Positions 47,255-63,875 are shown, numbered from the stretch's first letter. The stretch: 64,000 bases of DNA from Chitinophagaceae bacterium (GCA_031368105.1 JANLQY010000121.1:7975-71974), one strand, 5' to 3'. Notes: generated by a model from the sequence alone, not told the origin. Numbers and translations are program-made.

Positions 47255-47503
47255 CATTTACAGCACTTCCTTAAATTGACTCAGCCTTTGCAGTAGAAGT
47301 ACATTCTGTACAACTAAAACAAAGGCTGATAAATTGGCAATCAATCTTAAGCAAATATAGTGAGGCAATTATCATTGCAGCAAAAAAAAATCAGTTTTGG
47401 CAAATCTTTTTATTTTACAAAAACTACCTGTTTTGCCTGTTCAAAATCACTTAATTTTACCAGCTCAATATTTCTTTTTTTCAAAAAAATAATTTTCATC
47501 ATT

Positions 47504-48871
47504 ATGCAAGTTTGGAAAGATTACCAGGAAAAAAATAAGGACCGTTTTTTAAATGAATTACTCGACCTGTTGCGGATACCAAGTATCAGCGCCAAGACGG
47601 AGAACAAGGCAGACATGATAACCTGTGCCGAAGCAGTAAAGCAAAGACTGGTGGAAGCAGGCGTTGACAAAGTGGAGATTTATCCTACAGACGGCCACCC
47701 GGTGGTGTATGCAGAAAAAATAATTGACCCTTCCAAACCAACTGTACTGGTATATGGCCACTACGATGTGCAGCCGGCAGAACCTTTAGAGCTTTGGAAA
47801 AGTGGCCCCTTTGATCCGGTAATTATTGATGGTAAAATATTTGCCCGTGGCAGCTGCGATGATAAAGGCCAGGTGTACATGCATGTAAAAGCATTGGAAA
47901 CAATGGTACAGACCAACACCCTTACCACCAATATAAAATTTTGTATTGAGGGTGAAGAAGAAGTTGGATCACCTAACCTGGGTAAGTTTGTAGCAAGCCA
48001 TAAAGAGCTGTTGAAAGCAGATTGTATTTTAATCAGTGATACTGCCATGCTGAGCATGGAGAACCCAAGTATTGATACCGGCGTACGTGGATTGAGTTAT
48101 ATAGAAGTGGAAATAACCGGGCCAAACCGTGACCTGCACAGTGGTGTGTACGGCGGTGCTGTTGCCAATCCAATTACTATTTTAGCAAAAATGATTGCCA
48201 GTTGCCATGATGAAAATAATCACATTACTATACCGGGGTTTTATGATGATGTGGTGATGGCTACAGATGAGGAAAGAAAATTAATGGCGGCTGCACCTTA
48301 TAATGAAAAAGAGTATGCGGCTGATTTGGGTGTGGTAGAATTGTGGGGAGAAAAAGGATTTACCACCAATGAAAGAACCGGCATCCGGCCTACATTGGAG
48401 CTGAATGGCATTTGGGGCGGCTACCAGGGTGAAGGAGCTAAAACAGTGTTGCCAAGTAAAGCATCTGCAAAAATTTCTACCCGGCTGGTACCCAATCAAT
48501 CATCCCAAAAAATAACGGCAAAATTGCTGGAGCATTTTAAAAAAATTGCACCGCCCAATGTTACCGTATCTGCATTTGAACACCATGGCGGCGAACCCTA
48601 CATGACACCGATTGACAGTAAAGCATACAAAGCAGCAGCCAAAGCAATGGAAACAACTTTTGGTAAAAAACCAATTCCTGTTCGTGGCGGTGGCAGCATT
48701 CCTATTTGTTCATTGTTCGAAAAAGAACTGGGAATTAAAATTGTATTTATGGGTTTTGGATTAGACAGTGATAACCTGCACAGCCCGAACGAAAAATTCA
48801 ATATTGAAAACTATTATAAAGGCATTGAAACCATTCCTTATTTCCATCAATATTTTGCGGAGATGAGTTAA
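47504..48871 (+). CDS. M20-family dipeptidase
   Basis: It begins MQVWKDYQEKNKDRFLNELLDLLRIPSISA (at 47504) and contains GHYDVQP, ARGSCDDKG, IEGEEEVGS and HSPNE. The upstream 48 codons of the track ORF look non-coding. Confidence 0.9.
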   Translation: MQVWKDYQEKNKDRFLNELLDLLRIPSISAKTENKADMITCAEAVKQRLVEAGVDKVEIYPTDGHPVVYAEKIIDPSKPTVLVYGHYDVQPAEPLELWKSGPFDPVIIDGKIFARGSCDDKGQVYMHVKALETMVQTNTLTTNIKFCIEGEEEVGSPNLGKFVASHKELLKADCILISDTAMLSMENPSIDTGVRGLSYIEVEITGPNRDLHSGVYGGAVANPITILAKMIASCHDENNHITIPGFYDDVVMATDEERKLMAAAPYNEKEYAADLGVVELWGEKGFTTNERTGIRPTLELNGIWGGYQGEGAKTVLPSKASAKISTRLVPNQSSQKITAKLLEHFKKIAPPNVTVSAFEHHGGEPYMTPIDSKAYKAAAKAMETTFGKKPIPVRGGGSIPICSLFEKELGIKIVFMGFGLDSDNLHSPNEKFNIENYYKGIETIPYFHQYFAEMS

Positions 48872-48979: not shown

Positions 48980-50020
48980 TTAATCCATCACTTCATACAG
49001 CAGCATCGCCGTCGATTTATTTTTCAAAATCACTTCCCCCACTTTGCGGCAGTTGAATGATTCTTTTACTTTTTGATAAGCCGCTTCATTGATGACAATC
49101 TGGCCTTCTTTAGCAGCCGATTGCAGCCGCTGTGCAATGTTTACGGTGTCCCCAATCACAGTGTAATCGAGTCTTTTCAAATTTGCCGAACCAATATTTC
49201 CAGAAATCATTTCGCCGGTATTGATGCCGATAGAAACCTGCGGTGTAAAAGAAATATTATCAGACAATGCAGGCAAACTTCTTATTTTACTTCTTACTGC
49301 AAGGCAGGCATCAATGGATCTGTCTAAATGATATTCGCCACGAAAAACGGCCATGATGGCGTCGCCAATAAATTTATCAATGTAGCCACCCTGTGCAATA
49401 ATTTCCTTCACCATCACATCAAAATAATTGTTCAGCAGTTTCACCACCACATCCGGCATTTCATTTTCACTGATAGAAGTAAAGCTGCAGATGTCAATAA
49501 AAACCACCGTTGCATCTACCGTTTCATTTGCCATTAATGAAGATTCAAACTCACGTCCACCCATAAATTTCAGCACCGTTTCATCCACATACATTTTAAG
49601 AATATTATTTTCTTTGATTGCTTTGAGTGTTTCTTTTATTTGTGCAACATGCCGGAGTGTTTTATCCATCGTCAGTGAAAGGTCTTCAAAATTGATGGGC
49701 TTGGTGATAAAGTCAAATGCACCCCGGTTCATAGCCGTACGGATATTTTCCATATCGCCATAAGCAGATACGATTACCGATTTTATCAACGGGCTTGTTT
49801 CTCCCAACCGGCTCAGCAATGTAAGGCCATCCATTTCCGGCATATTAATATCACTCAATACAATATCCACATCCGGGTTTTGCTGAATTTTTTCCAACGC
49901 ATCCTTTCCATTTACTGCAAAGATGAATTCATATTGCTGCTCCCTTATCTTTTGGCGGAATTTCTGTTTGATGAGCATTTCCAAATCAGCCTCATCATCA
50001 GCCACTAAAATTTTTGCCAT
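48980..50020 (-). CDS. Response regulator: receiver domain fused to a class III adenylate/guanylate cyclase domain
   Basis: The receiver reads ILVADDE...VLSDINMPEMDG...SAYGD...KP. The cyclase reads ATVVFIDICSFTS...IDKFIGDAIMAVF...IGINTGEMISGNIGS...DYTVIGDTVNIAQRL. Confidence 0.9.
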   Translation of the reverse strand: MAKILVADDEADLEMLIKQKFRQKIREQQYEFIFAVNGKDALEKIQQNPDVDIVLSDINMPEMDGLTLLSRLGETSPLIKSVIVSAYGDMENIRTAMNRGAFDFITKPINFEDLSLTMDKTLRHVAQIKETLKAIKENNILKMYVDETVLKFMGGREFESSLMANETVDATVVFIDICSFTSISENEMPDVVVKLLNNYFDVMVKEIIAQGGYIDKFIGDAIMAVFRGEYHLDRSIDACLAVRSKIRSLPALSDNISFTPQVSIGINTGEMISGNIGSANLKRLDYTVIGDTVNIAQRLQSAAKEGQIVINEAAYQKVKESFNCRKVGEVILKNKSTAMLLYEVMD

Positions 50021-50394
50021 CAGGATATTATTTTAAGTTTTTCTTTTAGTAAAGTAAAGTCAACCGGCTTGGTTAAAAAATCATCGGCACCCAATTGTTT
50101 GGCAATGTTATAATTTTCAGCATCGCCGTAAGCAGTAATCATCATTACAACCGGCGGGGGTTTAGAATATTTCTGTTTGATATGCCCAAGCAGGTCGAGC
50201 CCACTCATGCCCGGCATATTAATATCAGAAAGAATCAGCACTGCTTCATGCTCATGCTGGTTAAGATAGATAAGTGCTTCTTCGCCAGAGAAAGCAAAAA
50301 CAAATTTTATTTCATTGTTCTTGATCTCTTTGCGGAACCTTTGTTCAAAAAGCACCTGTACATCTTTTTCATCGTCAACTACTAAGATTTTCAT
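50020..50394 (-). CDS. Single-domain response regulator (receiver only)
   Basis: It reads KILVVDDEKD...ILSDINMPGMSG...TAYGD...TKP and is 124 aa. Its stop overlaps the start of the cyclase-RR gene by 1 nt. Confidence 0.9.
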   Translation of the reverse strand: MKILVVDDEKDVQVLFEQRFRKEIKNNEIKFVFAFSGEEALIYLNQHEHEAVLILSDINMPGMSGLDLLGHIKQKYSKPPPVVMMITAYGDAENYNIAKQLGADDFLTKPVDFTLLKEKLKIIS

Positions 50395-50410
50395 TTGCTG
50401 AATGTATGAT

Positions 50411-52669
50411 TTATATAGGTAAATTAATAATAAATACCGAACCTTCTCCTTCTTTTGTTTCTACTTTTAATTCTCCGCCGTGCCCCTTGGTAACAATATC
50501 ATAACTCAGGCTCAAACCCAACCCTGTGCCTTGTCCTGTTGGTTTTGTTGTAAAGAAGGGTTGAAAGATTTTATCCATTACTTTTTGTGGAATACCATTG
50601 CCGTTATCGGTAACTCTTATTTCAGCCCCCCTGCCTCCGCTGGTTAGGGGATTCAAAAGCCTTGTACTAACGGTAACAATTGGCTCATAACCGGGAATGT
50701 TTAATTTCTTTTTTTCATCCACCACATAAAAAGCATTGGTGAGCAAATTCAATATTACTCTTCCAATATCCTGCGGAATGATATTTACTTTTCCGATTGA
50801 ATTATCAAAATCAGTTTTCATTGTTGCATTGAAAGATTTGTCCTTTGCTCGTAATCCATGATAACTTAACCGTAAATATTCATCACACAAAGCATTGATA
50901 TCTGTTGGCTCTTTGTGTCCACTGCTGCTGCGGCTGTGTTGCAGCATACCTTTTACAATGGCATCGGCCCGTTTACCATGGTGGTTTATTTTTTCTGAAT
51001 TTTATTCAATGTCATTTGCAAGAGCATTCACCACATTCATATTGCCCTTAATTACTTCACTCCTTAATTCCTTAATTAATTCACTGTTCACTTCGCTAAA
51101 ATTATTTACAAAGTTTAATGGGTTCTGAATTTCATGTGCAATGCCTGCGGTGAGTTCGCCAAGGCTTGCCATTTTTTCTGATTGTATTAACTGAGACTGG
51201 GTTGTCTGCAAGTCTTTGATGGAACCCTCCAATTTTGATTTTTGCAGATCGATCTCCTGCTTCTGCTTTTTAAGAAGATCGTATGATTTTTGCTTTCTCT
51301 GGTTATTCCGGTAAACAATAACTCCAATTACGAGGGCAACAAGTCCAAGAGTTATCATTCCGTACAATCGTAGCTTAGCTGCATATTGATCATCTGATAT
51401 TTTTTTAGCCTGAGCAATATCATCCTCTCTTTGCTGTTCTGCTAATGCCATATTCTGGATCTGCCTGCTGTTCTCATCATTATAAAGAGTTTTATAGGCT
51501 TCAAAACCGATCTGTTGATAATGATAGGCAGAGTCGGTGTTATGTATTTTCTGAAAATACGCTGTTATTAAACTACTTGATTCTGAGATATAAGGTAAGA
51601 AGCCTTTGTCCAATGCAGTACCCAGGCATAACCTGGCATACATTAAACTGGAATCAGCCATTCCCGTTTTATTGAAATACCTAGCAAGGCCAATGGTGGT
51701 GGCACAGTAATTCAAATACTGAATTTGGACTGTTGTAAAATAGACATAACTACGACGCAGGTAGTCTATTGCCAGGCTATCTTTTCCTAATTGATCGTAG
51801 ATCATGCCAAGATCATTCAATACACCGCCATAAACTTTATCCTCACTGCCATAGAATTTTACAGCCAGTTTGTAAGCAAGATCAGCATAATGACTGGCCG
51901 AATCATTTTGCTGCTCCAATAAATATGCTTTCGAAAGATCAACATGAATGAAAATATGTATGAAGGCATTTTTTTCACCGTAATTTTTTGCCTTATAAAA
52001 ATACTCTATAGCCCTTTTAGTATCTTTTGTTTCTCCATAAGTGTGTGCTATCTGGTATAAGGCATTTTCTATGGCTGAACTGTCTTTCTTTTCTTCATTG
52101 AGATGCAATATGACAAATAGAACCTGGAGTGCTTTTGGATAATTACCCATATCAGTGCAGGCTTGAGCAAAAGTGGCCATAAATGCCAATGAGTCTATTT
52201 TATTATCACGGCTTATTGAAAGCATCTTCTCATAGTAAATGAAAAAGGAATCTTTGATAAAATAACCGCTCTCAGAGCTGATATATGTTCTCAATACAGC
52301 AATTTCCTGGTCGGCAAAATGGTGCTGCCTCGATTTATAAAGGGCTTCTTGCAGAAGTAAATGAGCGCTGTCTACATTATGATATTTTGACAATGTAAGT
52401 GCTAATCGCCTCAAACACACAATTTCCTGTTTTAAAAATCCTCTTTCACGGGCTATAGCCAGAGCCCTTTGATATACTATAAAAGCGGTATCATTATTCA
52501 GGAGATCAACCTGGTAATACCTTCCTAATTCCAGTAGTGTTGCCACTTTTATAGAATCTGAAGGAGGGTTTACGATCAGAGCCCTCAGGCTGTCAGATTT
52601 TAAATCCTGCCCGTTTAGTTTCATAAGGATAAGCAACATCATTAGTACACTCCAGGATAATTTTCTCAT
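50411..52669 (-). pseudogene. TPR-type sensor histidine kinase interrupted by one in-frame TAA (51002-51004)
   Basis: ORFs 51002-52669 (signal peptide, TPR-like repeats, TM, H-box) and 50411-50947 (N/G boxes) are in the same frame. Reading through gives [29 protein letters not shown], where intact paralogs have [30 protein letters not shown] (TCC Ser in all three). Confidence 0.8.
50625..50651 (+). repeat. Degenerate GC-rich palindromic element embedded in-frame in the kinase CA domain
   Basis: GCCCCCCTGCCTCCGCTGGTTAGGGGA encodes (antisense) NPLTSGGRGA at the position where the 52672 and 56088 paralogs have a shorter GDKV segment. Confidence 0.5.
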
Positions 52670-52671
52670 AA

Positions 52672-54684
52672 TTAAATATTAGTATTTGGTAAAAGTATTG
52701 TGAATGCAGTTCCATCTTTTTCCATCGTTTCTACTTTTATTTCCCCACCATGTGCTTTTACAATATCATAACTCAATGATAAGCCCAATCCTGTTCCCTG
52801 CCCAGTTGGCTTGGTGGTAAAGAAGGGTTGAAAAATTTTATCCAAAACTTTTTGAGGAATGCCGTTGCCATTGTCCGCAATTTTTATTTCAACTTTATCA
52901 CCGACTTTTTTTGTGCTGATTGAAACAGTTGGTTCATAGTTTTCAACTCCTAATTTCTTTTTTTCATCCACCACATAAAAAGCATTTGTCAATAAATTCA
53001 AAACTACTCTTCCAATATCTTGTGGTATAATATTTACTTTTCCAATGCTGTTATCGAAATCGGTTTTTATAGTGGCGTTGAAAGATTTATCTTTTGCCCT
53101 TAATCCATGATAACTCAATCTTAAATATTCATCGCACAAAGCATTAATATCTGTTGGTTCTTTTTGCCCACTGCTGCTTCTTGAATGCTGCAGCATTCCT
53201 TTCACAATCGCATCGGCACGTTTGCCGTGATGATTTATTTTTTCTGAATTGGACTCAATATCATTTGCAAGAGCTGCCACTTCATCCATGTTGCCCTTAA
53301 TTACTTCACTCCTTAATTCCTTAATTAATTCTGCATTTACTTCACTAAAATTATTTACAAAGTTTAACGGGTTCTGAATTTCATGAGCAATGCCGGCGGT
53401 AAGTTCTCCAAGGCTTGCCATTTTTTCTGATTGGATGAGTTGTGATTGGGTGGACTTTAGTTTATCCAGCGTTTGTTCCAGTTGGTCTTTTTGTTTTTGT
53501 ACCAATCTTTTTGCATGCTGTTCCTTCCTTTTACTGCGCCAAAAAATAAAAGCCAAACCCATTAATACAATTGCCATTGCACTAATAAAATATAATATCA
53601 TCCGGTTTTGAAAAGCAGTTTTCTGCGCTACCAGTTCCTTTTGCCGCTGCATGTCATTATAGGCCATACTTTGTGCCTGTTCTACCACTTTATCACCATA
53701 CAAGCTATCTTTTAAATTATAATAACGTACCAAATAAGAGAGTGTACTATCCGTGTTGGGTAAAGCACGGTAGTATCCGACCATTAAAGCCAATGCGTTC
53801 ATCTGCTCGGTCAAATTTTCTGTTCTTGCAATAGTATAAACCTCGGAGGCAAAGTAAAAGGCAGAATCCATCTTTCCCAATTGCATGTAGTAAGCGGCAT
53901 TGCGGGAAGCTATTCTGCTTTTCATTTCAGAATTTCGAATGGCAAAAGGCATCAGGCTCGCCTGCCGGTAATACTGTAAGTTATTTTCTTTATCATCTAA
54001 ACCACTTAAACTCAAAAGGACAATCGGTATATTAGGTTCAAGATTTTTCTCTACAGCCAAACGATAGCTTTCCAGATAATAGGCTAATGCGGAATCTTTT
54101 TTTTGATCCTGCATGAACATACGGCCTAAATTATTCTGATCAAAGCATGCAAATAAGTAATCATTGCCTTGTCGGGCATACTCCAGGGCTTTTGTCATAT
54201 AGTGCCTCGACATTTGTTTATTGTTTGGATAACAGTTACCCAAATTGTTATAAGCTATGCCAATAGCCTGTGCATTACCTGTTGCTTCCGCCTTTTCCAG
54301 CGACTCATAAATCATTTTAAGTCCCCCGGCTGTATTTCCGTTTCTGGAAGTAATAAAACCTAACTCTGCCATCAATACAGCCTCCAGCACTTTATCTTTT
54401 CTTTTCTGTGCCCCCTCTAAAATATGCCGGTGATAATAGAGAGATTTCTCAGGCGTAAGTTCGTCGGAGTTAGCTACAATATCATAAAACATTGCAATCT
54501 GGTCTGCTGGTTTTGGTGCCATCCATAATAGTAGCAACACACTATCCCGGTTAAGTAGCAAAGGATGGCTGCTTTTTTTAGACAAAGCAACAGCAGTTAG
54601 ACTATCAACATATTTTTTTGGAAAAATTTGAGCTTTTCCAATAATCGTTATCAGCAGAAAGCAGGCAGAGAAAAATAGTTTCAT
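52672..54684 (-). CDS. Sensor histidine kinase: signal peptide, TPR-like extracytoplasmic domain, one TM, HisKA, HATPase_c
   Basis: It starts [19 protein letters not shown]. The TM is [20 protein letters not shown], the H-box is [19 protein letters not shown], and the ATP-binding boxes are [15 protein letters not shown] and [14 protein letters not shown]. Confidence 0.9.
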
Positions 54685-54689
54685 ATTGT

Positions 54690-54880
54690 TTTTTAGTAAT
54701 TGGTAATTGAATAATAAATGTTGTTCCTTCTCCCTCTTTCGTCTCCACTTTTATTTCCCCGCCATGTGCTTTAATAATATCATAACTCAAACTCAATCCC
54801 AATCCTGTTCCCTGCCCGGTGTGTTTGGTGGTAAAGAAGGCTTGAATATTTTATCCAATACTTTTTGTGGAATGTATTTT
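54690..54880 (-). pseudogene. 3' remnant of a fifth histidine-kinase paralog (G2 box to C-terminus), frameshifted
   Basis: The reverse complement reads [12 protein letters not shown], then (after a 1-nt loss relative to the paralog sequence TTCCAACCCTTCTTT) [48 protein letters not shown]. Nothing homologous to the H-box or sensor lies upstream. Confidence 0.7.
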
Positions 54881-54996
54881 TTCCAATTGCAAAATTTGAA
54901 GTTTCAAAATCACCCGTAAAATAGTTACAAAATTTGCACCTGCGGTTTTTTATTTTTATTGCCGATAGCAGTTATTAATTATAATCTATCCATTTC

Positions 54997-55206
54997 AACC
55001 TCAGCACTTCGAATTTGTACTTCAGCACTTCAAAATATTACCTCACAACTACAAATCCATACCTCAGCACATCAAATTAGTTCCCCGGAAGTACAAACCT
55101 GTACTTCAGAACATCAAACTTGTACTTCGGAACATCAAACTTGTACTTCGGAACAATAAATTAGCAGTTCCGAACTACAAATTAGTACTTCGGAACTACT
55201 AATTTG
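54997..55206. repeat. Ten tandem, degenerate 21-bp repeats (consensus about TACTTCGGAACATCAAACTTG)
   Basis: Unit boundaries are at 55018, 55039, 55060, 55081, 55102, 55123, 55144, 55165 and 55186, so the period is exactly 21 nt throughout. Units at 55102, 55123 and 55144 are near-identical. Units at 55081 and 55165 carry the core in inverted form (CCGGAAGTAC, GTTCCGAACTAC). Confidence 0.9.
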
Positions 55207-55283
55207 ACCAATTAGGAGGAATTAGGTATGAAATAAACCGATTTTTTAAATAAAAGTGGGAAAAGTTCATTTTTCAAATATCA

Positions 55284-55306
55284 TAAAAAAACCGCCTTTC
55301 GGCGGT
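55284..55306 (-). terminator. Rho-independent terminator after the 154-aa gene
   Basis: On the minus strand, ACCGCC-GAAA-GGCGGT is followed by TTTTTTT. Confidence 0.8.
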
Positions 55307-55328
55307 AGATTTATAAAGTTATAAGATA

Positions 55329-55793
55329 TTATTTTTTGCGCCTGCCTCCGGGAAAACGCTCTCTTAAATCTTCATAAATAACTTTTGCCCCAGGCTCGTT
55401 TAGCTTGGCAGCTTGTTTTACATTGTTGTAATAAGACAGGCTGGCAATATATGCCTCGCTGCCGGAGAGCATCATGCTGTCGCCAATGTTGGTATATAAC
55501 TGACCAGAGAGATCATACAGCGGCTTTAATACTTCCACCCCTACGTAATCAACCTTTAATTCGGGCACATCTAAAAATTTGGGACAAAACTCCGGATTGG
55601 TATCCGAATAGCTCACCACTTTGCCTACATAGGCCACTGTTTTATCACTCATTTTTGCAATTTCTTGCCGCTCTGCGGGAGTAAGCTGCTCAAGATAAGG
55701 TGCCAGCAGGGTAATGGTTTTAATGATGTTGTCCCTGGCTTCTGCCACCACGGCTGGTGGAATTTTTAAGCTGATTTGAGAATTTTGGCTCAT
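55329..55793 (-). CDS. Hypothetical protein (154 aa) embedded in the kinase array
   Basis: It is a clean ORF with its own terminator. It reads MSQNSQISLKIPPAVVAEARDNI...LTPAERQEIAKMSDKTVAYVGKV...DSMMLSGSEAYIASLSYYNNVKQAAK. It is predicted helical and soluble. No family name recalled. Confidence 0.6.
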   Translation of the reverse strand: MSQNSQISLKIPPAVVAEARDNIIKTITLLAPYLEQLTPAERQEIAKMSDKTVAYVGKVVSYSDTNPEFCPKFLDVPELKVDYVGVEVLKPLYDLSGQLYTNIGDSMMLSGSEAYIASLSYYNNVKQAAKLNEPGAKVIYEDLRERFPGGRRKK

Positions 55794-55815
55794 AATAAAA
55801 TTGTTTTAAGTTGTA

Positions 55816-55835
55816 CAGCGGCGATATTGCCGCTG
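55816..55835 (-). promoter_or_regulatory. Stable hairpin in the leader of the 154-aa gene
   Basis: CAGCGGC-GATATT-GCCGCTG (7-bp GC-rich stem) lies ~20 nt upstream of the start codon. No U-tract follows on the minus strand, so it does not look like a terminator. Confidence 0.3.
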
Positions 55836-56087
55836 AGACTACTAATTTACAATTCATTTACAAATCATTAACAATTAGAATAAAAAATATTTTTTGCATG
55901 TTGAAAAAATGTGAATTTTTTCATTTGTAATGTTTCTGGTTCATGATAGCATTTACAGATGCTGCACCGGGTATTTCAGTTGCAGAAAAAGTATTTATAC
56001 TAACGGCCTGCATTCAGTTATCAATCTTTAAGAATTTAATCAGGGGTTTCGGCTGATAGCGGCTGAATTAAAAAAAATTAGCAGCTT

Positions 56088-58118
56088 TTATGTACAGGGC
56101 AATTGTATAATAAATGTTGAACCCTCACCTTCTTTCGTCTCCACTCTCAATTCTCCTCCATGCCCCTTGGTTACAATATCATAACTCAAACTCAATCCCA
56201 ATCCCGTTCCCTGCCCGGTGGGCTTGGTGGTAAAGAAGGGTTGAAATATTTTGTCTAATACTTTTTGTGGGATGCCGTTACCGTTATCGGCTACTTTAAT
56301 TTCAACCTTATCTCCTAGTTTCTTTGTGCTTATAGAAACAGTGGGTTCATAGTTTTCTATCTCAGCTTTCTTCTTCTCATCTACAACATAAAAAGCATTG
56401 GTGAGCAAATTCAAAACAACTCTTCCAATATCCTGCGGAATGATATTGATGTTGCCGATTGAATTATCAAAATCAGTTTTCATCGTTGCATTAAAGGTTT
56501 TGTCTTTAGCCCGTAAGCCATGATAACTTAACCGTAAATATTCATCACACAAAGCATTAATGTCGGTTGGTTCTTTTACACCACTGCTGCTGCGGCTGTG
56601 TTGCAACATTCCTTTTACGATTGCATCGGCACGTTTGCCATGGTGATTTATTTTTTCTGAGTTGGATTCAATATCGTTTGCAAGAGCTGCCACTTCATCC
56701 ATGTTGCCCTTAATTACTTCACTCCTTAATTCCTTAATTAATTCTGCATTCACTTCACTAAAATTATTTACAAAATTCAACGGGTTTTGAATTTCATGTG
56801 CAATGCCTGCAGTAAGTTCACCGAGGCTGGCCATTTTTTCGGATTGGATCAATTGTTTCTGAGTAGCCTTTAATTCATTAAGCGTTCTCTCTATCTCGCT
56901 ATTTTTCTCCTGTAGTGTTAGATTTGCTTTTTGCTTTTGACGATTGTTGCGGTAAAGTAAGAATCCAATAGTACTAAATACGGCAATCAATGCTATGATG
57001 GCAATTGTTTTTAAGTTACCCTCCTTTTCAATTCTCTTTTGTTCCTGTTGCTGTAAATCTAATTGCTGATTGAATGCCGCCACCTGGAATTCCTGGAGCC
57101 TTTTCTTTTCTATGCTGCCAACACGATCATTTAATAATGTAGCCAGTCTTAAATAAGCAAAAGAACTGTCTGTATTGTTTTGGTCATGATAATAATCTGA
57201 GATCATCCGGTAAGCAATTGTTTTTTCTTTTTCGTAGCCACCCAGTGTAAATGCTTCAATGGCTTTTTTGGCATAAAGAAAAACCGAATCTGCTTCTTTT
57301 AACGACTGATAAAGATTGGCTAACTGAAGACATGCATTTCCCGTATGCCGGGGATTATCGTGCTGCTCACTAACCTGGATGGCTTTTTGGTAATTTTCCC
57401 TGGCAATATCAGTATTTCCCATTTGCTCGTAGATCGTTCCTATGGATGAGTACGTGCCGCCTTCAAATTTTCTATCATCAAAAGTTAACTTTGTATAATA
57501 ATAAAGTGACTTCTGCTGATAGAAGAGGGCTGAATCAAACTTCTTCAGTCTTAAATAATAATCACCTATATCAGGGTATAGTCCAGCAAGGTTAAAAGTG
57601 TCTCTTACGGATTCTAAACGTGTAATTGCTTCATGGGCAATAGCAATTTGCTTTTCATAGTTACCGGCATAGAGGTACAGGCTCTCAAGGGCAGAATATA
57701 GTATGCCGATTACAATACGCCGGTACATTTGCGGTGTTTGTCCTTTTTGCAGATTCCATGTATTTTTTTCGTTAGAAGGATCTTCGGCAATTTTCAATCC
57801 CTGGTTTATTACCTTAAGTGCCTCGGGATAATTTCCCGTCTTCATGAGCGGCCAACCCATAAATGCCAACATCTCAGCCCTGTTCAATTGTAAGTCGAGT
57901 TTTTCGGCGATAGCTATACCCTTGTTACAATAATACAGACCACTATCAACGCTTATATCGTCGTATAATCCCCCCAACATTGAGTAAGCAGCCATACGGA
58001 CTGTATCATTCGCTGCAAGCTGAAGTATCAGATAGGTACTGTCTATTTGCCGCCGGGTCTGAGCTTTGCCTAATGCCGGCAATAATAAAAGCAACACTAT
58101 TTTCAGTAATAATTTCAT
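56088..58118 (-). CDS. Sensor histidine kinase: signal peptide, TPR-like domain, one TM, HisKA, HATPase_c
   Basis: It starts MKLLLKIVLLLLLPALGKAQ. The TM is TIAIIALIAVFSTIGFLLY. The core is nearly identical to the other paralogs. Confidence 0.9.
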   Translation of the reverse strand: MKLLLKIVLLLLLPALGKAQTRRQIDSTYLILQLAANDTVRMAAYSMLGGLYDDISVDSGLYYCNKGIAIAEKLDLQLNRAEMLAFMGWPLMKTGNYPEALKVINQGLKIAEDPSNEKNTWNLQKGQTPQMYRRIVIGILYSALESLYLYAGNYEKQIAIAHEAITRLESVRDTFNLAGLYPDIGDYYLRLKKFDSALFYQQKSLYYYTKLTFDDRKFEGGTYSSIGTIYEQMGNTDIARENYQKAIQVSEQHDNPRHTGNACLQLANLYQSLKEADSVFLYAKKAIEAFTLGGYEKEKTIAYRMISDYYHDQNNTDSSFAYLRLATLLNDRVGSIEKKRLQEFQVAAFNQQLDLQQQEQKRIEKEGNLKTIAIIALIAVFSTIGFLLYRNNRQKQKANLTLQEKNSEIERTLNELKATQKQLIQSEKMASLGELTAGIAHEIQNPLNFVNNFSEVNAELIKELRSEVIKGNMDEVAALANDIESNSEKINHHGKRADAIVKGMLQHSRSSSGVKEPTDINALCDEYLRLSYHGLRAKDKTFNATMKTDFDNSIGNINIIPQDIGRVVLNLLTNAFYVVDEKKKAEIENYEPTVSISTKKLGDKVEIKVADNGNGIPQKVLDKIFQPFFTTKPTGQGTGLGLSLSYDIVTKGHGGELRVETKEGEGSTFIIQLPCT

Positions 58119-58127
58119 CTGATTAAT

Positions 58128-61100
58128 TTAAGCATTTGGTAATTTGATTATGAACTCTGAACCTGCCTGTCCGTCCCGATTGCTATCGGGAAGGCCTTCT
58201 CCATCTTTACTGTTTACAGTTATTTCACCCCCATGCGCTTTTATAATATCATAGCTCAAACTCAAACCCAGTCCTGTTCCTTGTCCTGTGGGTTTGGTGG
58301 TAAAGAATGGCTGAAATATTTTGTCTGCTATTTTTTTAGGAATGCCGTTGCCATTGTCAGCAACTTTAATTTCAGCCCCCCTGCCCCCCGAAGGGGGGGT
58401 CAAAAGCCTTGTACTAACGGTAACAATTGGCTCATAACCGGGAATGTTTAATTTCTTTTTTTCATCCACCACATAAAAAGCATTTGTTAATAAATTCAAA
58501 ACAACTCTTCCAATATCCTGCGGAATGATATTGATGTTGCCAATTGATGTATCAAAATCCGTTTTAATTGTTGCATTAAAAGATTTGTCTTTTGCTCTTA
58601 ACCCATGATAACTCAACCGTAAATATTCATCACACAAAGCATTGATGTCGGTTGGTTCTTTTACGCCACTGCTGCTTCTTGAGTGCTGTAACATTCCTTT
58701 TACAATCGCATCAGCACGTTTGCCGTGGTGGTTTATTTTTTCCGAATTGGATTCAATATCATTTGCCAGTGCAGTCACTTCATCCATGTTGCCCTTAATT
58801 ACTTCATTCCTTAATTCCTTAATTAATTCTGCATTCACTTCACTAAAATTATTTACAAAATTTAAAGGGTTTTGAATTTCATGTGCAATGCCTGCAGTGA
58901 GTTCACCGAGGCTGGCCATTTTTTCGGATTGGATCAATTGTTTCTGGGTAGCCTTTAATTCAGTCAATGCATCTTCTGCTCTTTTCTTTTCTGTTTGCAG
59001 TTTTATTAAATCCTGTTCGGCCTGGCGGCCATATTGCATAGCCAGTTCAACATCAGTATACCGCTGGTAGGTAAGTTCAAATACATTTTTAAAACGCTTC
59101 AATACATTCATCGCCTCTTCATTCAATGGAGTATAAGTACAAAAACCTAATCCGCCCGGGCCTATGGAATAATAATAATAATTAAGAAAAGTGGCTGCAT
59201 CCAGTTTGGGTGCAGGCCGTTGAATTAAATTTTTCAAATGATTACGCCAGTCATCCAGCTCGGCACCTGTAACTGTTATAGAAATAAATTCTTCTTTATT
59301 CTGCCGCATTTTTTTGGCCAGCGATGCAATAAAAGGGTGACTGTTGTATAATATTTCGCCAACGAAACTGATACCATTATTATAGTAATCGTAATTCATG
59401 TAACTCCCTTTGGCATCATTGGCAATGGCAACTTGTGTGTTGCGGATATTTTCAAAACCGAGATGCTGCAGTTCTGTCAATAATGTTTTGCAAACTTCAA
59501 TCAGCTCTTCTGATTTACGCATAATCATTGCCTGCGAACGTATGCGTTCCAGCGAAGCTTCTATTTGAGCTTCTCTTGCCTGTGCTTCTGCCTGTTTCAA
59601 ATCATTAAACCGGGTATAGGTTAAATCAAAAACTTTTCCAAACCGGCTTAAAATGTCGAGTTGTTCATCTGAAAGCTGCACTGGCCCAGAGGCTTCTATG
59701 AAACCAAAATTATTGAACGAGCCCGAAATAATTGTATGTGTTGATGATAAAATTCCGGTTTTCACTGCTTCACTAAGTTGGGAAAGTTCTGTTTCATGCA
59801 GCAGCATTTCATCAATTGATTTTTTTTCATTTCCCTCCAGTACATAAACCCATTTAGGATTTTTTTCTTTCCATCCATTTATAATTGCTTTGTAGTAAGG
59901 ATGATTCAATTGTTTGATAAAAAAACTTTCTGCATTTTTTTTATCTTCTGAATTGGCCATCCATATCCTTGCTGATAAAGTACCAGGATTAAAAATCCAG
60001 ATGATACAGCGGTACAGGATTAAATTAAGTTTTGTGAGCTCTTCAAATAATACAGCTACTAATTCACTTAGCTCTTCAGATTTTTGCATGGCCATAGCTC
60101 TTGCTCTCACTCTTTCCAGTCCCAATTCTATCTGCCCCTCCCTTGCCTGCGCTTCGGCTTTTTGCAGATCGAGAAAACGGGTATAGGTTCTTTCAAATTC
60201 TATTGCAAAGCGTCGGAGTATCTTTTTTTCTTCCTGGTTTAAATCTAGTTGTACCATTACACCAAAGCAGCCATATTTCATAAATGCTTCTACATAATAT
60301 AATCCGCCACGGAAATTTTCAGGTGTTAATGTCTCAACGCCATTGATCAGTTCCTGCCAGGCGGCAAAATAATTTTCCACTCCTTCAGGTGGTACAGCGT
60401 AGGAAACAACAGGCTCATCGCTTTTCCAATCAATGAGACATTGCTTAGTAGCAGGTTCATTCCTGTTGAGCGGATAATTAATGGCTTTATTTTTAAAAAC
60501 GATTGAACCGTTTTCATTCTCTTGCCAGATAGCCCAGAAGATGTGTTGTTTTTTCTCTTCATCAGGCAGCCATAAAAAAGAAAATGCTGAATGGATACCA
60601 AGCAACTGAACCTGTTCGTGAAAAACCCGTAAGGTATCATCCAGCTCTTTTGAATGCTGCATAATCATGCTTTGTGTACGGGTACGTTCCAATGCGGCTT
60701 CAATCTTTGCTTCTCTTGCCTGTGCTTCTGCTTTTTGCAGATCAAGGAAACGGGTATAGGTTTGCTGGAATACTTTTCCAAACCGCATCAGAATGGCATT
60801 CTCTTCATCTGTATAAATAGTACCCGAAAAATTTTCGATGTACAGGCCAACATTTTCTAACAATATAGTAGATGCCCCAAGGCCCGGGCAACTAAAATAA
60901 AATTCCTTCGCTTGTTCCGTCAATCCGGGGATATGCTTTAAAAGATCCTGGTAGAATTTGTTTTTTTCTTCAAAATTCAGATGAGTGGCAAAGAAATCCA
61001 TTCCCTTTTCTTTTGCTTCATTATAACAAATTCCCCATACAGAATCGAAATAAGGAACTGTTATCTCAGCCGGAACTTCGTGCTTGTCAGCTATCCAAAA

Positions 61101-62447
61101 ATGCCAATCACTCTTTGCCTTATAATCCACAACAAATCCTGTATGTTCGATGTGGATATTTAAGTGAACGAATTGTTCATACACCACCTGAATTACCTCT
61201 TTGAGCTCTTCACTTTTTTGCATAGCCATGGAACGGCTTCTTACTTTTTCTAATGCTGTTTCAATCTTTGCTTCTCTTGCCTGTGCTTCTGCTTTTTGCA
61301 GATCAAGAAAGCGGGTATAGGTGCCGTCAAATACTGCGGCAAACCGCTCTAATAATTTCATGGTTTCTTCTGTCCTTGGGTCGGGTGTAGAAATAGAAAT
61401 TAAACCTTTTGAAAAGATCCCTGCATGTACAAACCTATGCCCTTGCAAATCTTCCTGCTTTACCGGAAGTCCGCTTAATTCACTTCTGTAATGCACATAG
61501 TCTTTCAATTCTTTACCAGTGAGATGTATAATAACAGATTTTTTTTGTGCTGCCCATGCAACAAATAGTTTATGCATTAATGTGGGTTCATCAATGCTTG
61601 CTTTATGCAACGTGTTGCCCTTCTTTCCCTGTTGTGTAATATGAAATTCAATAATACGGTATTCTTCATTCATAATACCGATCGTGATTTGATTAGGCGC
61701 TTCACCTAATTCTTTAAACTGCTGAAAAAGAATAGCGGCAGTTTCAGCCAGCTCCTCACTTTTTTGCATTGCCATGGTTCTTGCTCTCACCCTTTCTAAT
61801 GCCAATTCTATTTGTGCTTCTCTGGCCTGTGCTATCGCCAGTTCAATATCCATAAACCTGCGGTAAGCCAGTTCAAATACATTGCGGAAGCGTTTGAATA
61901 AATTAATCTCTTCTTCATTCAAAAAAACATAAGTGGATATACCCAATGCCACAGGGCCAAGTGAATACCAGTAATAACAAAGTGCTGCTGCTTTTTCTAA
62001 ATAAGTATCAGCAAACTGGTTGGTTGTTTTTTGATATTCATACCATGTTTTCACTTCTTTTCCTTCTATGAAAAGTGTAAACAGTTCTTCTGCACCCGTC
62101 AGCATTTGCACGGCAAACTTCTTTTGCAGTTCATGGTTTTTGTAATCTACTTCAGTAACCAGGAGTTTATCATGCTTTGCATAATATTCATAATTAAGAT
62201 AAGTGCCTTTGCTGTCATAGATGATAGCTGTCTGCACATTCCTGATTTCTTTTACATTGAGCAATTCCAGTTGTTGTGAAATGATTTTACAAACACCCAG
62301 CATATCGGCCGGTTCTTTCATGGATAATGCAATGGCTCTTACTTTTTCTAAAGCAGTTTCAATTTCCAGTTCCCGGTTTTTTGCTGCCAGCTCTTTTTCA
62401 AGTGCTGCATTTCTGGCTGTGAGCAATTGTTCCTGTTTACTGTTCAT
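58128..62447 (-). CDS. 1439-aa soluble multi-module sensor histidine kinase (six ~190-aa repeated sensor modules, HisKA, HATPase_c)
   Basis: There is no signal peptide or TM. An N-terminal coiled coil is followed by six modules, each ending in L.RF..VF..TY.RF and a conserved helix (LDLQKAEAQAREAKIE.ALE.VR...M.MQKSEEL). The shared kinase core then follows. Confidence 0.9.
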   Translation of the reverse strand: MNSKQEQLLTARNAALEKELAAKNRELEIETALEKVRAIALSMKEPADMLGVCKIISQQLELLNVKEIRNVQTAIIYDSKGTYLNYEYYAKHDKLLVTEVDYKNHELQKKFAVQMLTGAEELFTLFIEGKEVKTWYEYQKTTNQFADTYLEKAAALCYYWYSLGPVALGISTYVFLNEEEINLFKRFRNVFELAYRRFMDIELAIAQAREAQIELALERVRARTMAMQKSEELAETAAILFQQFKELGEAPNQITIGIMNEEYRIIEFHITQQGKKGNTLHKASIDEPTLMHKLFVAWAAQKKSVIIHLTGKELKDYVHYRSELSGLPVKQEDLQGHRFVHAGIFSKGLISISTPDPRTEETMKLLERFAAVFDGTYTRFLDLQKAEAQAREAKIETALEKVRSRSMAMQKSEELKEVIQVVYEQFVHLNIHIEHTGFVVDYKAKSDWHFWIADKHEVPAEITVPYFDSVWGICYNEAKEKGMDFFATHLNFEEKNKFYQDLLKHIPGLTEQAKEFYFSCPGLGASTILLENVGLYIENFSGTIYTDEENAILMRFGKVFQQTYTRFLDLQKAEAQAREAKIEAALERTRTQSMIMQHSKELDDTLRVFHEQVQLLGIHSAFSFLWLPDEEKKQHIFWAIWQENENGSIVFKNKAINYPLNRNEPATKQCLIDWKSDEPVVSYAVPPEGVENYFAAWQELINGVETLTPENFRGGLYYVEAFMKYGCFGVMVQLDLNQEEKKILRRFAIEFERTYTRFLDLQKAEAQAREGQIELGLERVRARAMAMQKSEELSELVAVLFEELTKLNLILYRCIIWIFNPGTLSARIWMANSEDKKNAESFFIKQLNHPYYKAIINGWKEKNPKWVYVLEGNEKKSIDEMLLHETELSQLSEAVKTGILSSTHTIISGSFNNFGFIEASGPVQLSDEQLDILSRFGKVFDLTYTRFNDLKQAEAQAREAQIEASLERIRSQAMIMRKSEELIEVCKTLLTELQHLGFENIRNTQVAIANDAKGSYMNYDYYNNGISFVGEILYNSHPFIASLAKKMRQNKEEFISITVTGAELDDWRNHLKNLIQRPAPKLDAATFLNYYYYSIGPGGLGFCTYTPLNEEAMNVLKRFKNVFELTYQRYTDVELAMQYGRQAEQDLIKLQTEKKRAEDALTELKATQKQLIQSEKMASLGELTAGIAHEIQNPLNFVNNFSEVNAELIKELRNEVIKGNMDEVTALANDIESNSEKINHHGKRADAIVKGMLQHSRSSSGVKEPTDINALCDEYLRLSYHGLRAKDKSFNATIKTDFDTSIGNINIIPQDIGRVVLNLLTNAFYVVDEKKKLNIPGYEPIVTVSTRLLTPPSGGRGAEIKVADNGNGIPKKIADKIFQPFFTTKPTGQGTGLGLSLSYDIIKAHGGEITVNSKDGEGLPDSNRDGQAGSEFIIKLPNA
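58174..58191 (+). repeat. Perfect 7-bp-stem palindrome inside the kinase C-terminal coding region
   Basis: TCCCGAT-TGCT-ATCGGGA lies within an 11-residue insertion (LPDSNRDGQAG) that is absent from the other paralogs (DGEG[LPDSNRDGQAG]SEFIIKLP versus KEGEGSTFIIQLP). Confidence 0.6.
58375..58399 (+). repeat. GC-rich mirror-arm + hairpin element embedded in-frame in the kinase CA domain
   Basis: GCCCCCC-TG-CCCCCC-GAA-GGGGGGG encodes (antisense) TPPSGGRGA. It has the same architecture as the intergenic elements at 4775, 7419, 32545 and 32631. Confidence 0.6.
59569..61868 (-). repeat. Intragenic ~53-nt repeat recurring every ~545-570 nt (encodes the inter-module helix)
   Basis: Copies start near 59569, 60139, 60709, 61270 and 61815. 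The stretches 60702-60761 and 61262-61321 differ at only 2 positions over ~60 nt. Confidence 0.8.
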
Positions 62448-62516: not shown

Positions 62517-63875
62517 TTACTCATCTTTTTTGATGTTAGCCTTTTCCAATTCTGCCGCAATTTCCTTCATCACTTCAAATTGTATCTTTTTATCCTTAAT
62601 CATTTTCATTATTAAAAAAATAAAAGCAAGAATTAAAATAAACAGGCTGATGCCAATAATTTCTTCTTTTGATAAATTGGAAAGCAGCCAGATGATTATT
62701 GCAGTGGCAATTAACGGAATGGTAATGCCTCCGGGAATGGTAAATGTTTTTTCAGCAGCGGCCAATTTTTTAAACCGAAGTTTTATGGTGGCCATTACAA
62801 CACCGAAGTAAATTAATAAGGTGGCAGCGCTTGATAAAATAATGAGTTGCTTTAACCCTCCCAACAGGGCTAACAAAAAACCCAATGCTGCATACACAAT
62901 AATGGCAACATGCGGTGTAAGAAACTGCGGATGTACTTTAGATAAAAATTTTGGCAAAATACCATTTCTTGCACCAGCATATAATATTCTTGGGGTGGCC
63001 AGTATTTCTCCGCTAAGAGCCCCCAGCATGGATATAGCAGTTCCGGCAACGACCAATGTAATACCGAAATTTCCAAAAACTATTTTTGAAACAGCAGCAA
63101 GTGGCGCTTCTTTAAAAGCAATCAACTGATCTCCTAAAACTCCCTGGGTAATTAGTTGAATGGCTATGTAAAGAATTAATACAAACGAAAGCCCCGATAA
63201 AATTCCTAACGGAACTGTTTTGGCTGGATTTTTAAATTCGCCGCCATTGGTTACCGCATTTTCAATACCGAGGAATGCATAAAATAAAATAAGCGTTGAA
63301 GTGCCAACATTATTTATTGTAAGCGAATGCTTCCATTGTAAATTCTCTGCCGAAATATGCCCGGTGCCAAAAGCAATCAACAATAAAAGCGGAATGAGTT
63401 TGGCAATAGTGGCAATTACAATAAACCTGACACCTTCCTTTGCACCACGAACATTAATGAAAGCCAACACGCCAAACAGCAGTAAAAAAAATACTGGCCG
63501 AAAAACTGCGGAATCTATGAAAGGGAAAAAAAGACTTCCTGTTTTTACCAATGCATTGGCTATTGCCGCATCCGACAAGACACAGGAACCAAACCAAAAT
63601 ATATTGTTGGCTAAAAACCCGGCAAAGGAGCCAAAGGCAGTTTCAATGTAAGCGTATGTACCGCCGCTAACAGTTACTTTACTGCCCACTTCAGCAAAAC
63701 ACAGAGCAATTAAAAATATCAGCAGGCCGCAAATAAAAAAACAAACAATGGCAGCAGCTCCTAAATTTTCGGCCACCAGTGCAGGCAATACAAATATGCC
63801 GGTACCAACAGTGATATTGATAACAGCACAGGCCAGCCCAAAAACTCCAATGGTACGTTTCAGGTTTTCCTGCAT
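62517..63875 (-). CDS. APC-superfamily amino acid permease
   Basis: The 452-aa product has ~12 TM helices. The N-terminal pattern is FGLACAVINITVGTGIFVLPA...FAEVGS. Confidence 0.88.
   Translation of the reverse strand: MQENLKRTIGVFGLACAVINITVGTGIFVLPALVAENLGAAAIVCFFICGLLIFLIALCFAEVGSKVTVSGGTYAYIETAFGSFAGFLANNIFWFGSCVLSDAAIANALVKTGSLFFPFIDSAVFRPVFFLLLFGVLAFINVRGAKEGVRFIVIATIAKLIPLLLLIAFGTGHISAENLQWKHSLTINNVGTSTLILFYAFLGIENAVTNGGEFKNPAKTVPLGILSGLSFVLILYIAIQLITQGVLGDQLIAFKEAPLAAVSKIVFGNFGITLVVAGTAISMLGALSGEILATPRILYAGARNGILPKFLSKVHPQFLTPHVAIIVYAALGFLLALLGGLKQLIILSSAATLLIYFGVVMATIKLRFKKLAAAEKTFTIPGGITIPLIATAIIIWLLSNLSKEEIIGISLFILILAFIFLIMKMIKDKKIQFEVMKEIAAELEKANIKKDE

Follow-up and report, generated by a model that had tools for sequence, protein, structure and literature searches.

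A tandem array of histidine kinase genes lies directly upstream of two receiver genes on the minus strand of a 64,000-nucleotide stretch of DNA from a Chitinophagaceae bacterium (GCA_031368105.1, JANLQY010000121.1:7975-71974), hereafter called the window. The array consists of three intact kinases (K1, K2 and K3), one interrupted kinase (K4) and the remnant of a fifth, and is followed by REC, which encodes a stand-alone receiver, and REC-cyclase, in which a receiver is fused to a nucleotide cyclase (Table 1). Throughout, K1 to K4 denote the window kinases, L numbers denote related loci and k-numbers the kinases within such a locus. Open reading frame (ORF) analysis returned the minus-strand genes at the positions given in an initial annotation, made from the sequence alone, and Pfam profile searches bore out all of its HisKA, HATPase_c, tetratricopeptide repeat (TPR), Response_reg and Guanylate_cyc assignments. 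That annotation had described four kinase genes and one remnant, with gaps of 2-16 nt between the kinase genes. The remnant is real, but only K1, K2 and K3 are intact, and the distance between K2 and K3 is 1403 nt. Its view of REC and REC-cyclase as the sole receivers held, as tblastn searches with the core and the receivers found no extra kinase or receiver in the 64 kb. Nor did Pfam detect a histidine phosphotransfer (HPt) domain or a receiver inside any of the four kinases, again as had been claimed, and no DNA-binding regulator, HPt protein or further receiver was found within the window.

The source bacterium is Ferruginibacter-like and of soil or freshwater origin. Comparison with related genomes indicates that the operon is not peculiar to it but is of a type conserved across Bacteroidota. 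When one genome per species was scanned, the REC and REC-cyclase pair was found in at least 580 species-level Bacteroidota genomes, with carriers in Chitinophagaceae, Cyclobacteriaceae, Flavobacteriaceae, Spirosomataceae, Hymenobacteraceae, Sphingobacteriaceae, Saprospiraceae and others; 80 loci were kept for comparison. Synteny is well preserved: 74 of 75 loci have the free receiver ahead of the cyclase gene, and a kinase of the same core family ends no more than 900 nt from the cyclase gene in 61 of 67. For 47 loci the complete upstream sequence was available, and the number of family kinases counted over 10 kb was zero in 1 locus, one in 12, two in 16, three in 13, four in 3 and five in 2; two or more are thus present in 34 of 47. 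The sensors carried by these kinases include TPR regions, Reg_prop/Y_Y_Y propellers, 7TMR-DISM domains, a short domain with 4-5 transmembrane (TM) helices and GAF-like modules.

Receivers, cyclase and sensors of the intact kinases

The free receiver is highly conserved and has its phospho-acceptor Asp within the motif LSDINMP. Both receivers match Response_reg (Pfam E-values of 5e-22 and 1.5e-23) and contain the alpha1 sequence DDExDxxxLxxQxFRxxI and the motif SDINMPxMxGLxLL. In the fused receiver D8, D57, S85 and K107 are invariant in 81 of 81 orthologs, and the same motifs are found in the free receiver. REC-cyclase, which is 85-90% identical to proteins annotated from Ferruginibacter, is organized as a receiver, a helical linker and a class IIIb cyclase domain. 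The residues expected of an active cyclase, namely the metal-binding D176 and D220, the substrate-specifying K216 and T287, and N294 and R298, are likewise invariant in all 81 orthologs, in agreement with the catalytic residues picked out at first. The nearest solved structures are the class IIIb adenylate cyclases CyaB (3R5G), OaPAC (5X4T), bPAC and CyaC. The initial annotation had favored ATP as the substrate, and the Lys216/Thr287 pair together with these structures supports that choice at the level of sequence, an Asp taking the place of the Thr in class IIIa enzymes; the last gene of the operon is therefore best described as a putative class IIIb adenylate cyclase with all catalytic residues and ATP as its predicted substrate. 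The REC and REC-cyclase genes do overlap by 1 nt (TGATG), which suggests that REC-cyclase is translationally coupled to REC. A second, divergent REC-cyclase (378 aa) is present in L083 (12182-14115), with its own adjoining kinase, on the opposite strand and some 7 kb away from the main operon, which shows that the output module can be present in paralogous copies. In L088 (1-2327) and L084 (5993-7078), FGE-sulfatase-domain proteins adjoin the arrays, and one of these is fused to Guanylate_cyc (878 aa).

The motifs AHEIQNPL, DNGNGIP, FQPFFTTK and GTGLGLS are found in K1 to K4, within a shared core made up of a dimerization and histidine phosphotransfer (DHp) domain and a catalytic and ATP-binding (CA) domain. 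HATPase_c is matched with E-values of 1e-19 to 1e-24; the HisKA match is weak, and the domain has an inserted loop. K1 is cytoplasmic, with no TM segment, and consists of six tandem modules of about 185 aa, which span the N-terminal 1170 residues in a module alignment, followed by the shared core. The AlphaFold2 model is confident, with a pLDDT of 91, and its top folds in the PDB are GAF domains, at TM-scores of only 0.47-0.54 and E-values near 1e-3. Pfam gave no match even at E<=10, and a PDB sequence search with the module profile yielded chance matches only. The modules are here called GAF-like. They belong to a large and unnamed family: a profile of the six modules (window 58950-62400) matches 2,829 cluster representatives, 1,619 of them at E<=1e-30, usually as 6-17 tandem copies in proteins of 1,200-3,880 aa. 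The same modules, at 30-36% identity in several registers, make up the 2249-aa sensor of kinase k1 in the Flavobacteriaceae array L039, which is about twice the length of the K1 sensor.

K2 and K3 are built alike, each having a signal peptide, an extracytoplasmic TPR region, a single TM segment and the core common to all four kinases. Pfam matches to TPR_12 and related families were obtained for K2, K3 and K4, and the K3 sensor is 69% identical to that of L014_k2.

Shared cores, apparently chimeric K4 and the K2-K3 interval

Alignment of the last 1000 nt of the four genes supports the claim that the cores are more alike than the sensors: at one abrupt boundary, located at a 12-residue protein stretch, identity goes from about 40% up to 80-98%. 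The peptide stretches quoted as shared were found in the kinases, and the four DNA stretches that had been singled out as near-identical (51035-51155, 53281-53400, 56695-56815 and 58779-58900) have a mean column identity of 93%. These four stretches, which are homogenized in all four kinases, correspond to part of DHp helix 1 and the family-variable DHp loop. The sensors are indeed dissimilar, the TPR sensors being at most 24% identical to one another and the K1 sensor unrelated. Recent duplication of whole genes was considered as the cause of the likeness and was ruled out, since the sensors share 24% identity at most, where they are related at all, and identity changes abruptly at the core boundary. 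At the protein level the window cores are 85-92% identical to one another, compared with 83-88% for the best match elsewhere.

In other two-component systems the DHp helices form the receiver-docking surface. Across 122 cores from many families, conservation reaches 90% or more in all 34 consecutive columns of DHp helix 1 and over most of helix 2. Among the window paralogs the cores have dN/dS ratios of 0.04-0.11, with a whole-core proportion of synonymous differences (pS) of 0.50-0.64 and dS of 0.8-1.5. In Flavobacteriaceae loci the paralogs are only 68% identical, while orthologs are 96% identical, and the docking helices are still the same; purifying selection, and not conversion, therefore maintains the docking surface. 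The uniformity of that surface does not depend on conversion, and selection also explains most of the protein uniformity of the cores. The initial annotation had suggested that the core may be kept uniform, possibly by conversion, with the effect that every sensor addresses the same receivers. Converted tracts do exist, but the docking surface is accounted for by selection and the whole-core pS is high.

Gene conversion among the paralogs is nevertheless real, though patchy. The 75 informative sites of the core are divided among the three possible 2+2 patterns (24, 21 and 30 sites), which are interleaved along its length, and the pairwise homoplasy index (PHI) test on the window cores gave p<0.0002. 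K1 and K4 share an identical tract of 96 nt that covers 28 consecutive polymorphic sites, and K2 and K3 share one of 74 nt, each with a permutation p<1e-4 in a runs test; for K1 and K2 the runs test gave p=0.009. Local pS in the tracts falls to 0.10-0.25 (0.10-0.24 in the K1-K4 tract), and none of the six within-window core pS values exceeds 0.64, the 1% quantile for pairs from different genomes, for which the median is 0.80. Low synonymous divergence across the whole core, as expected of full homogenization, was not seen; it is confined to local tracts. Most informative is the loop between the DHp helices, which is variable family-wide and near-identical in all four window kinases, whereas the closest relative, L081, has four different variants. 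Sharing of a DHp loop variant within one genome was also found in L082, L024 and L012.

K4 bears marks of both interruption and recombination. An in-frame TAA at 51002-51004, where the paralogs have the Ser codon TCC, divides it into ORFs of 555 and 178 aa. Orthologs of the K4 sensor elsewhere (79-86% identity) belong to intact kinases of 737-764 aa; the interruption therefore appears specific to this lineage, and K4 is predicted to be inactivated by the stop codon. A functional split kinase was considered and rejected, as the stop falls between the two DHp helices and the N-terminal product would lack half of the dimerization bundle. In its makeup K4 appears to be a three-part chimera. The sensor is 85-97% identical in nucleotide sequence to its L083 ortholog up to about 51245, while the variable part of the core is 51-70% identical to that ortholog and 85-88% identical to the window paralogs. 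Within the core, the segment 50704-50645 matches K1 (93%) and L081_k3 (95%), with just 41-45% identity to K2 and K3. All ten orthologs of the K4 sensor in the 73-86% identity range have cores that are less alike than their sensors (68-82%), in contrast to 87-89% for the in-window paralog cores. The tail is of different ancestry: about 110 nt (50527-50416) are 94-95% identical to the tail of another, short kinase that adjoins REC in L081. In Ferruginibacter-like relatives the REC-adjoining kinase is about 450-465 aa long, with a sensor of about 195 aa containing 4-5 TM helices. The window appears to have lost this short kinase save for its last 110 nt or so, which now form the K4 tail.

The comparison with L081 bears on the sensors as a whole. 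Nucleotide identity to the window is about 95% from inside the K4 tail through REC, the cyclase gene, the dipeptidase gene and beyond. None of the four L081 kinases next to REC (757, 797, 1133 and 449 aa), within the 10 kb upstream, has a sensor orthologous to that of K1, K2, K3 or K4. Sensors and cores thus appear to have separate histories. Sensors seem to be exchanged through recombination at the core boundaries, and the repertoire would therefore turn over rapidly, even between close relatives.

The interval between K2 and K3 is occupied by features of several kinds. A conserved gene for a hypothetical protein of 154 aa, unrelated to the kinases, is inserted inside the array. It has 82 homologs at 38-58% identity, every one annotated as hypothetical, which form a sparse family in Bacteroidota, Chlorobiales, Melioribacteraceae and others; Pfam and PHROG searches of the protein returned no family, and the gene was absent from the 82 related loci checked. 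One homolog adjoins DNA methylase and ResIII helicase genes, neighbors that are suggestive of an accessory island but not conclusive. Directly 3' of the 154-aa gene is a strong hairpin resembling an intrinsic terminator, and the array is probably divided by it into two transcription units. Next come about ten tandem copies of a 21-nt repeat, of which no copy was found elsewhere in the window and which could be a regulatory or promoter-proximal array. A sigma-70 promoter scan stayed at shuffle level (46 found, 45.3 expected), the model used being one that does not cover Bacteroidota promoters. Scans of the whole window found no tRNA gene and, at the gathering threshold, no Rfam family. Immediately upstream of K3 is the remnant of the fifth kinase, comprising its last 65 or so codons, which run from the G1/G2 boxes as far as the C-terminus. 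By tblastn it matches core residues 208-258 at 82% identity; in alignment it shows a 1-nt deletion that shifts the frame, and it lacks a stop codon of its own, its end adjoining the start codon of K3. Comparable stand-alone 3' core remnants are present in L006, L026, L041, L079, L088.

Table 1. Features of the array locus, in window coordinates except where a related locus is named
Feature	Coordinates	Strand	Description
Amino-acid permease gene	62517-63875		One flank of the locus
K1	58128..62447	minus	1439 aa; HisKA and HATPase_c (Pfam)
K2	56088..58118	minus	676 aa; HisKA and HATPase_c, TPR (Pfam)
154-aa gene	55329..55793	minus	Conserved hypothetical, inserted inside the array
Terminator-like hairpin	55306-55291	minus	ACCGCCGAAAGGCGGT then T7; directly 3' of the 154-aa gene
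21-nt tandem repeat	55001..55204		About ten copies, core GTTCCGAAGTACAAGTTTGAT; between terminator and remnant, upstream of K3
Kinase remnant	54685..54890	minus	3' remnant of a fifth kinase
K3	52672..54684	minus	670 aa; HisKA and HATPase_c, TPR (Pfam)
K4	50411..52669	minus	Interrupted, apparently chimeric TPR kinase; HisKA and HATPase_c, TPR (Pfam)
K4, putative sensor part	52669-~51200	minus	
K4, putative core part	~51200-50528	minus	
K4, putative tail part	50527-50411	minus	Different ancestry
Identical tract, K1 and K4	K1 58484-58392; K4 50737-50642	minus	96 nt
Identical tract, K2 and K3	K2 56750-56677; K3 53337-53264	minus	74 nt
REC	50020..50394	minus	124 aa; Response_reg (Pfam)
REC-cyclase	48980..50020	minus	346 aa; Response_reg and Guanylate_cyc (Pfam)
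M20 dipeptidase gene	47360-48871		Other flank, convergent with the array
Short REC-adjoining kinase of relatives	L081 8261-9610; L082 8219-9610; L088 8213-9610; L089 8234-9610		

Proposed circuit and competing explanations

The reading that we consider probable is that the locus exemplifies a conserved design, in which a variable array of sensor kinases sharing one family of transmitter core addresses two receivers with cAMP as the output, and recombination proceeds via the cores. The proposed convergence of several sensors on a single pair of receivers, with a cAMP cyclase as the output, draws good support from comparison among genomes. In this model each intact kinase would sense a different cue, K1 via its cytoplasmic GAF-like modules and K2 and K3 via their extracytoplasmic TPR regions, and would autophosphorylate on the His of AHEIQNPL. 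The near-invariant DHp surface would then hand the phosphoryl group on to an Asp, that of either the free or the fused receiver. Once phosphorylated, the fused receiver would alter the activity of the cyclase dimer and hence the level of cAMP, and the free receiver may compete for or buffer phosphate, or carry a second output. The docking helices would be held constant family-wide by purifying selection. The alike cores would at the same time furnish homology for recombination, such that short tracts are converted between array paralogs and whole sensor segments are swapped, with exchange points where sensor and core meet and in the region of the conserved G1/G2 boxes. The K4 chimera with its stop codon, the 3' remnant of a fifth kinase and the inserted foreign gene with its terminator would be scars of these events.

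A further-reaching version, which we offer as a tentative and rather doubtful extension, regards the array as a recombination-driven sensor exchange locus of a widespread and undescribed design. The core would serve both as a common plug and as portable homology, and sensors would be spliced on or lost, retuning the control of cAMP on a near-species timescale. Since the DHp helices of the co-expressed paralogs are identical, heterodimers between different sensors are possible, and these could combine signals.

Several points weigh against the proposed design. The wiring is deduced from synteny and conservation, K1-K4 orthologs could lie further upstream in L081 than the 10 kb compared, and the high whole-core pS confines conversion to short tracts, which could be old. 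The source is a 91-kb metagenome contig, and assembly or sequencing artefacts could account for part of what is seen in K4, with its mosaic makeup and stop codon, and in the frameshifted remnant. Conserved segments are places where an assembler could join related genomes; ancestry switches there may therefore be artefacts. Taken to its full extent, this last concern becomes an explanation in its own right, whereby the mosaic K4, its stop codon and the remnant all arose in metagenome assembly or sequencing through crossing between co-occurring genomes at the conserved cores. The origin of the contig, the location of the ancestry switches where conservation is highest (DHp alpha1, G2 box) and the lack of an exact K2 copy on record elsewhere would fit it. 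A mixture of genomes, on the other hand, would not be expected to leave one genome-specific loop variant in all four kinases, frames and short intergenic spacings are intact at every junction, and the longest identical tract between paralogs is just 96 nt. The same recombination patterns, moreover, are found in the isolate genome L043 and the 6.5-Mb contig L082, and remnants, frameshifted kinases and within-genome likeness of cores recur in other assemblies, these two included. We accordingly find it hard to credit artefact as the general cause. A different account dispenses with conversion and attributes the likeness of the cores to selection, AT-biased codon use and a fairly recent duplication of the core with fusion to different sensors. 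The low dN/dS and high whole-core pS cited above are compatible with this, as are the Flavobacteriaceae paralogs, at only 68% identity against 96% for orthologs, and the family-wide invariance of the DHp helices does not require conversion. We judge it improbable, given the PHI result (p<0.0002) with its interleaved incompatible site patterns, the 96-nt and 74-nt identical tracts (p<1e-4), a family-variable loop that is near-identical in four paralogs and different in the closest relative, and a K4 core that groups with its neighbors and not with the cores of its sensor orthologs.

Other explanations concern the wiring. Near-invariant DHp helices kept by all array members, here and phylum-wide, same-strand arrays of 2-5 kinases directly before the receivers in 34 of 47 loci, and 64 kb without another receiver all speak against the idea that the tandem kinases are mostly orphans for regulators elsewhere, brought to stand beside the receivers only through local duplication and with at most the nearest kinase cognate. 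That idea draws on the finding that expansion of histidine kinase families often separates kinases from regulators and shuffles sensors (Alm et al. 2006, PMC1630713), as well as on two features of this locus, the terminator between K1-K2 and the receivers and the interruption of the nearest kinase, K4; on the whole we think it unlikely. The output might also be something other than cAMP, either because the free receiver acts as a CheY-like protein-protein switch and provides the main output or because the cyclase makes another nucleotide. In favor of this, conservation of the free receiver equals that of its fused counterpart, 74 of 75 loci have it, and a cAMP receptor protein was not identified within the window. 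Yet the Lys/Thr pair, both metal-binding Asp residues, the Asn and the Arg are invariant in 81 of 81 orthologs, the nearest structures are proven class IIIb adenylate cyclases (CyaB, OaPAC, bPAC, CyaC), and the cyclase gene appears translationally coupled to the receiver gene. A circuit without cAMP thus strikes us as very unlikely, and the array of variable sensors acting through one core family on two receivers and a cAMP cyclase remains the reading that we favor.

Relation to known systems

Many-to-one pathways, receiver-regulated and class IIIb cyclases, and expansion of kinase families with sensor shuffling are all known already. In Bacillus subtilis KinA-KinE act on Spo0F/Spo0A, and in Vibrio harveyi LuxN, LuxQ and CqsS act on LuxU. 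The present locus resembles these pathways in the proposal that several kinases carrying unlike sensors phosphorylate a common receiver, so that their signals merge into one output. It differs in that the kinase genes are paralogs arranged in tandem and share an operon with the receivers, that their DHp helices are near-invariant, that neither an HPt protein nor a phosphorelay is involved, and that the output is a cyclase rather than a transcription factor. The kinase set also differs here between close relatives, and phosphotransfer is a proposal from sequence. Many-to-one signaling has been treated more generally (e.g. PMC8749435, PMC12471899).

REC-cyclase resembles cyanobacterial CyaC, Pseudomonas aeruginosa CyaB (3R5G), OaPAC (5X4T) and bPAC in its catalytic domain, its Lys/Thr pair and its metal and transition-state residues, and the helical segment that precedes the cyclase domain aligns with that of OaPAC (query 125-344 against OaPAC 105-325). 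Its regulatory portion is a single N-terminal receiver, in place of BLUF or MASE domains or the multi-domain regulators of CyaC. It is set apart from other class IIIb cyclases by its Bacteroidota lineage and by its pairing with a free receiver and a kinase array. A literature search found no study of this Bacteroidota REC-cyclase lineage and no description of the operon, its invariant docking helices or the turnover of its array; what it returned was general literature on many-to-one pathways and the expansion of kinase families.

Histidine kinase families are known to expand within lineages and to gain new N-terminal sensor domains (Alm, Huang and Arkin 2006, PMC1630713). The kinases of those expansions are dispersed, often orphan and functionally diverging, whereas those described here stand in tandem beside their receivers with an invariant docking surface. 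The paralogs here also appear to exchange tracts, and between orthologs sensor identity exceeds core identity.

The array may further be compared, by analogy only, with systems in which cassettes recombine through a constant segment, such as the Rhs/CDI toxin-tip arrays with their orphan fragments and pilE/pilS. In each a constant coding segment provides the homology, variable modules are exchanged and displaced fragments remain. The polarity is reversed here, the N-terminus being the variable part and the C-terminus the constant one; all genes are full-length and share one orientation, silent cassettes are absent, and nothing indicates programmed or high-frequency switching.

The usual view of paralogous two-component systems is that their kinase-regulator interfaces diverge, so that cross-talk is avoided. 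The Bacteroidota operon appears to present the opposite arrangement phylum-wide, with one frozen docking surface, many interchangeable sensors and a second-messenger output in place of a transcription factor. If the proposed wiring is correct, it would constitute a natural and genetically compact case of signal integration with plug-in sensors, a source of sensor/transmitter junctions for the engineering of chimeric kinases, and an entry point to cAMP signaling in environmental Bacteroidota, a phylum in which, to our knowledge, such signaling is almost unexplored. The greater conservation of sensors than of cores between orthologs is the reverse of the usual pattern and offers a testable signature of modular recombination.

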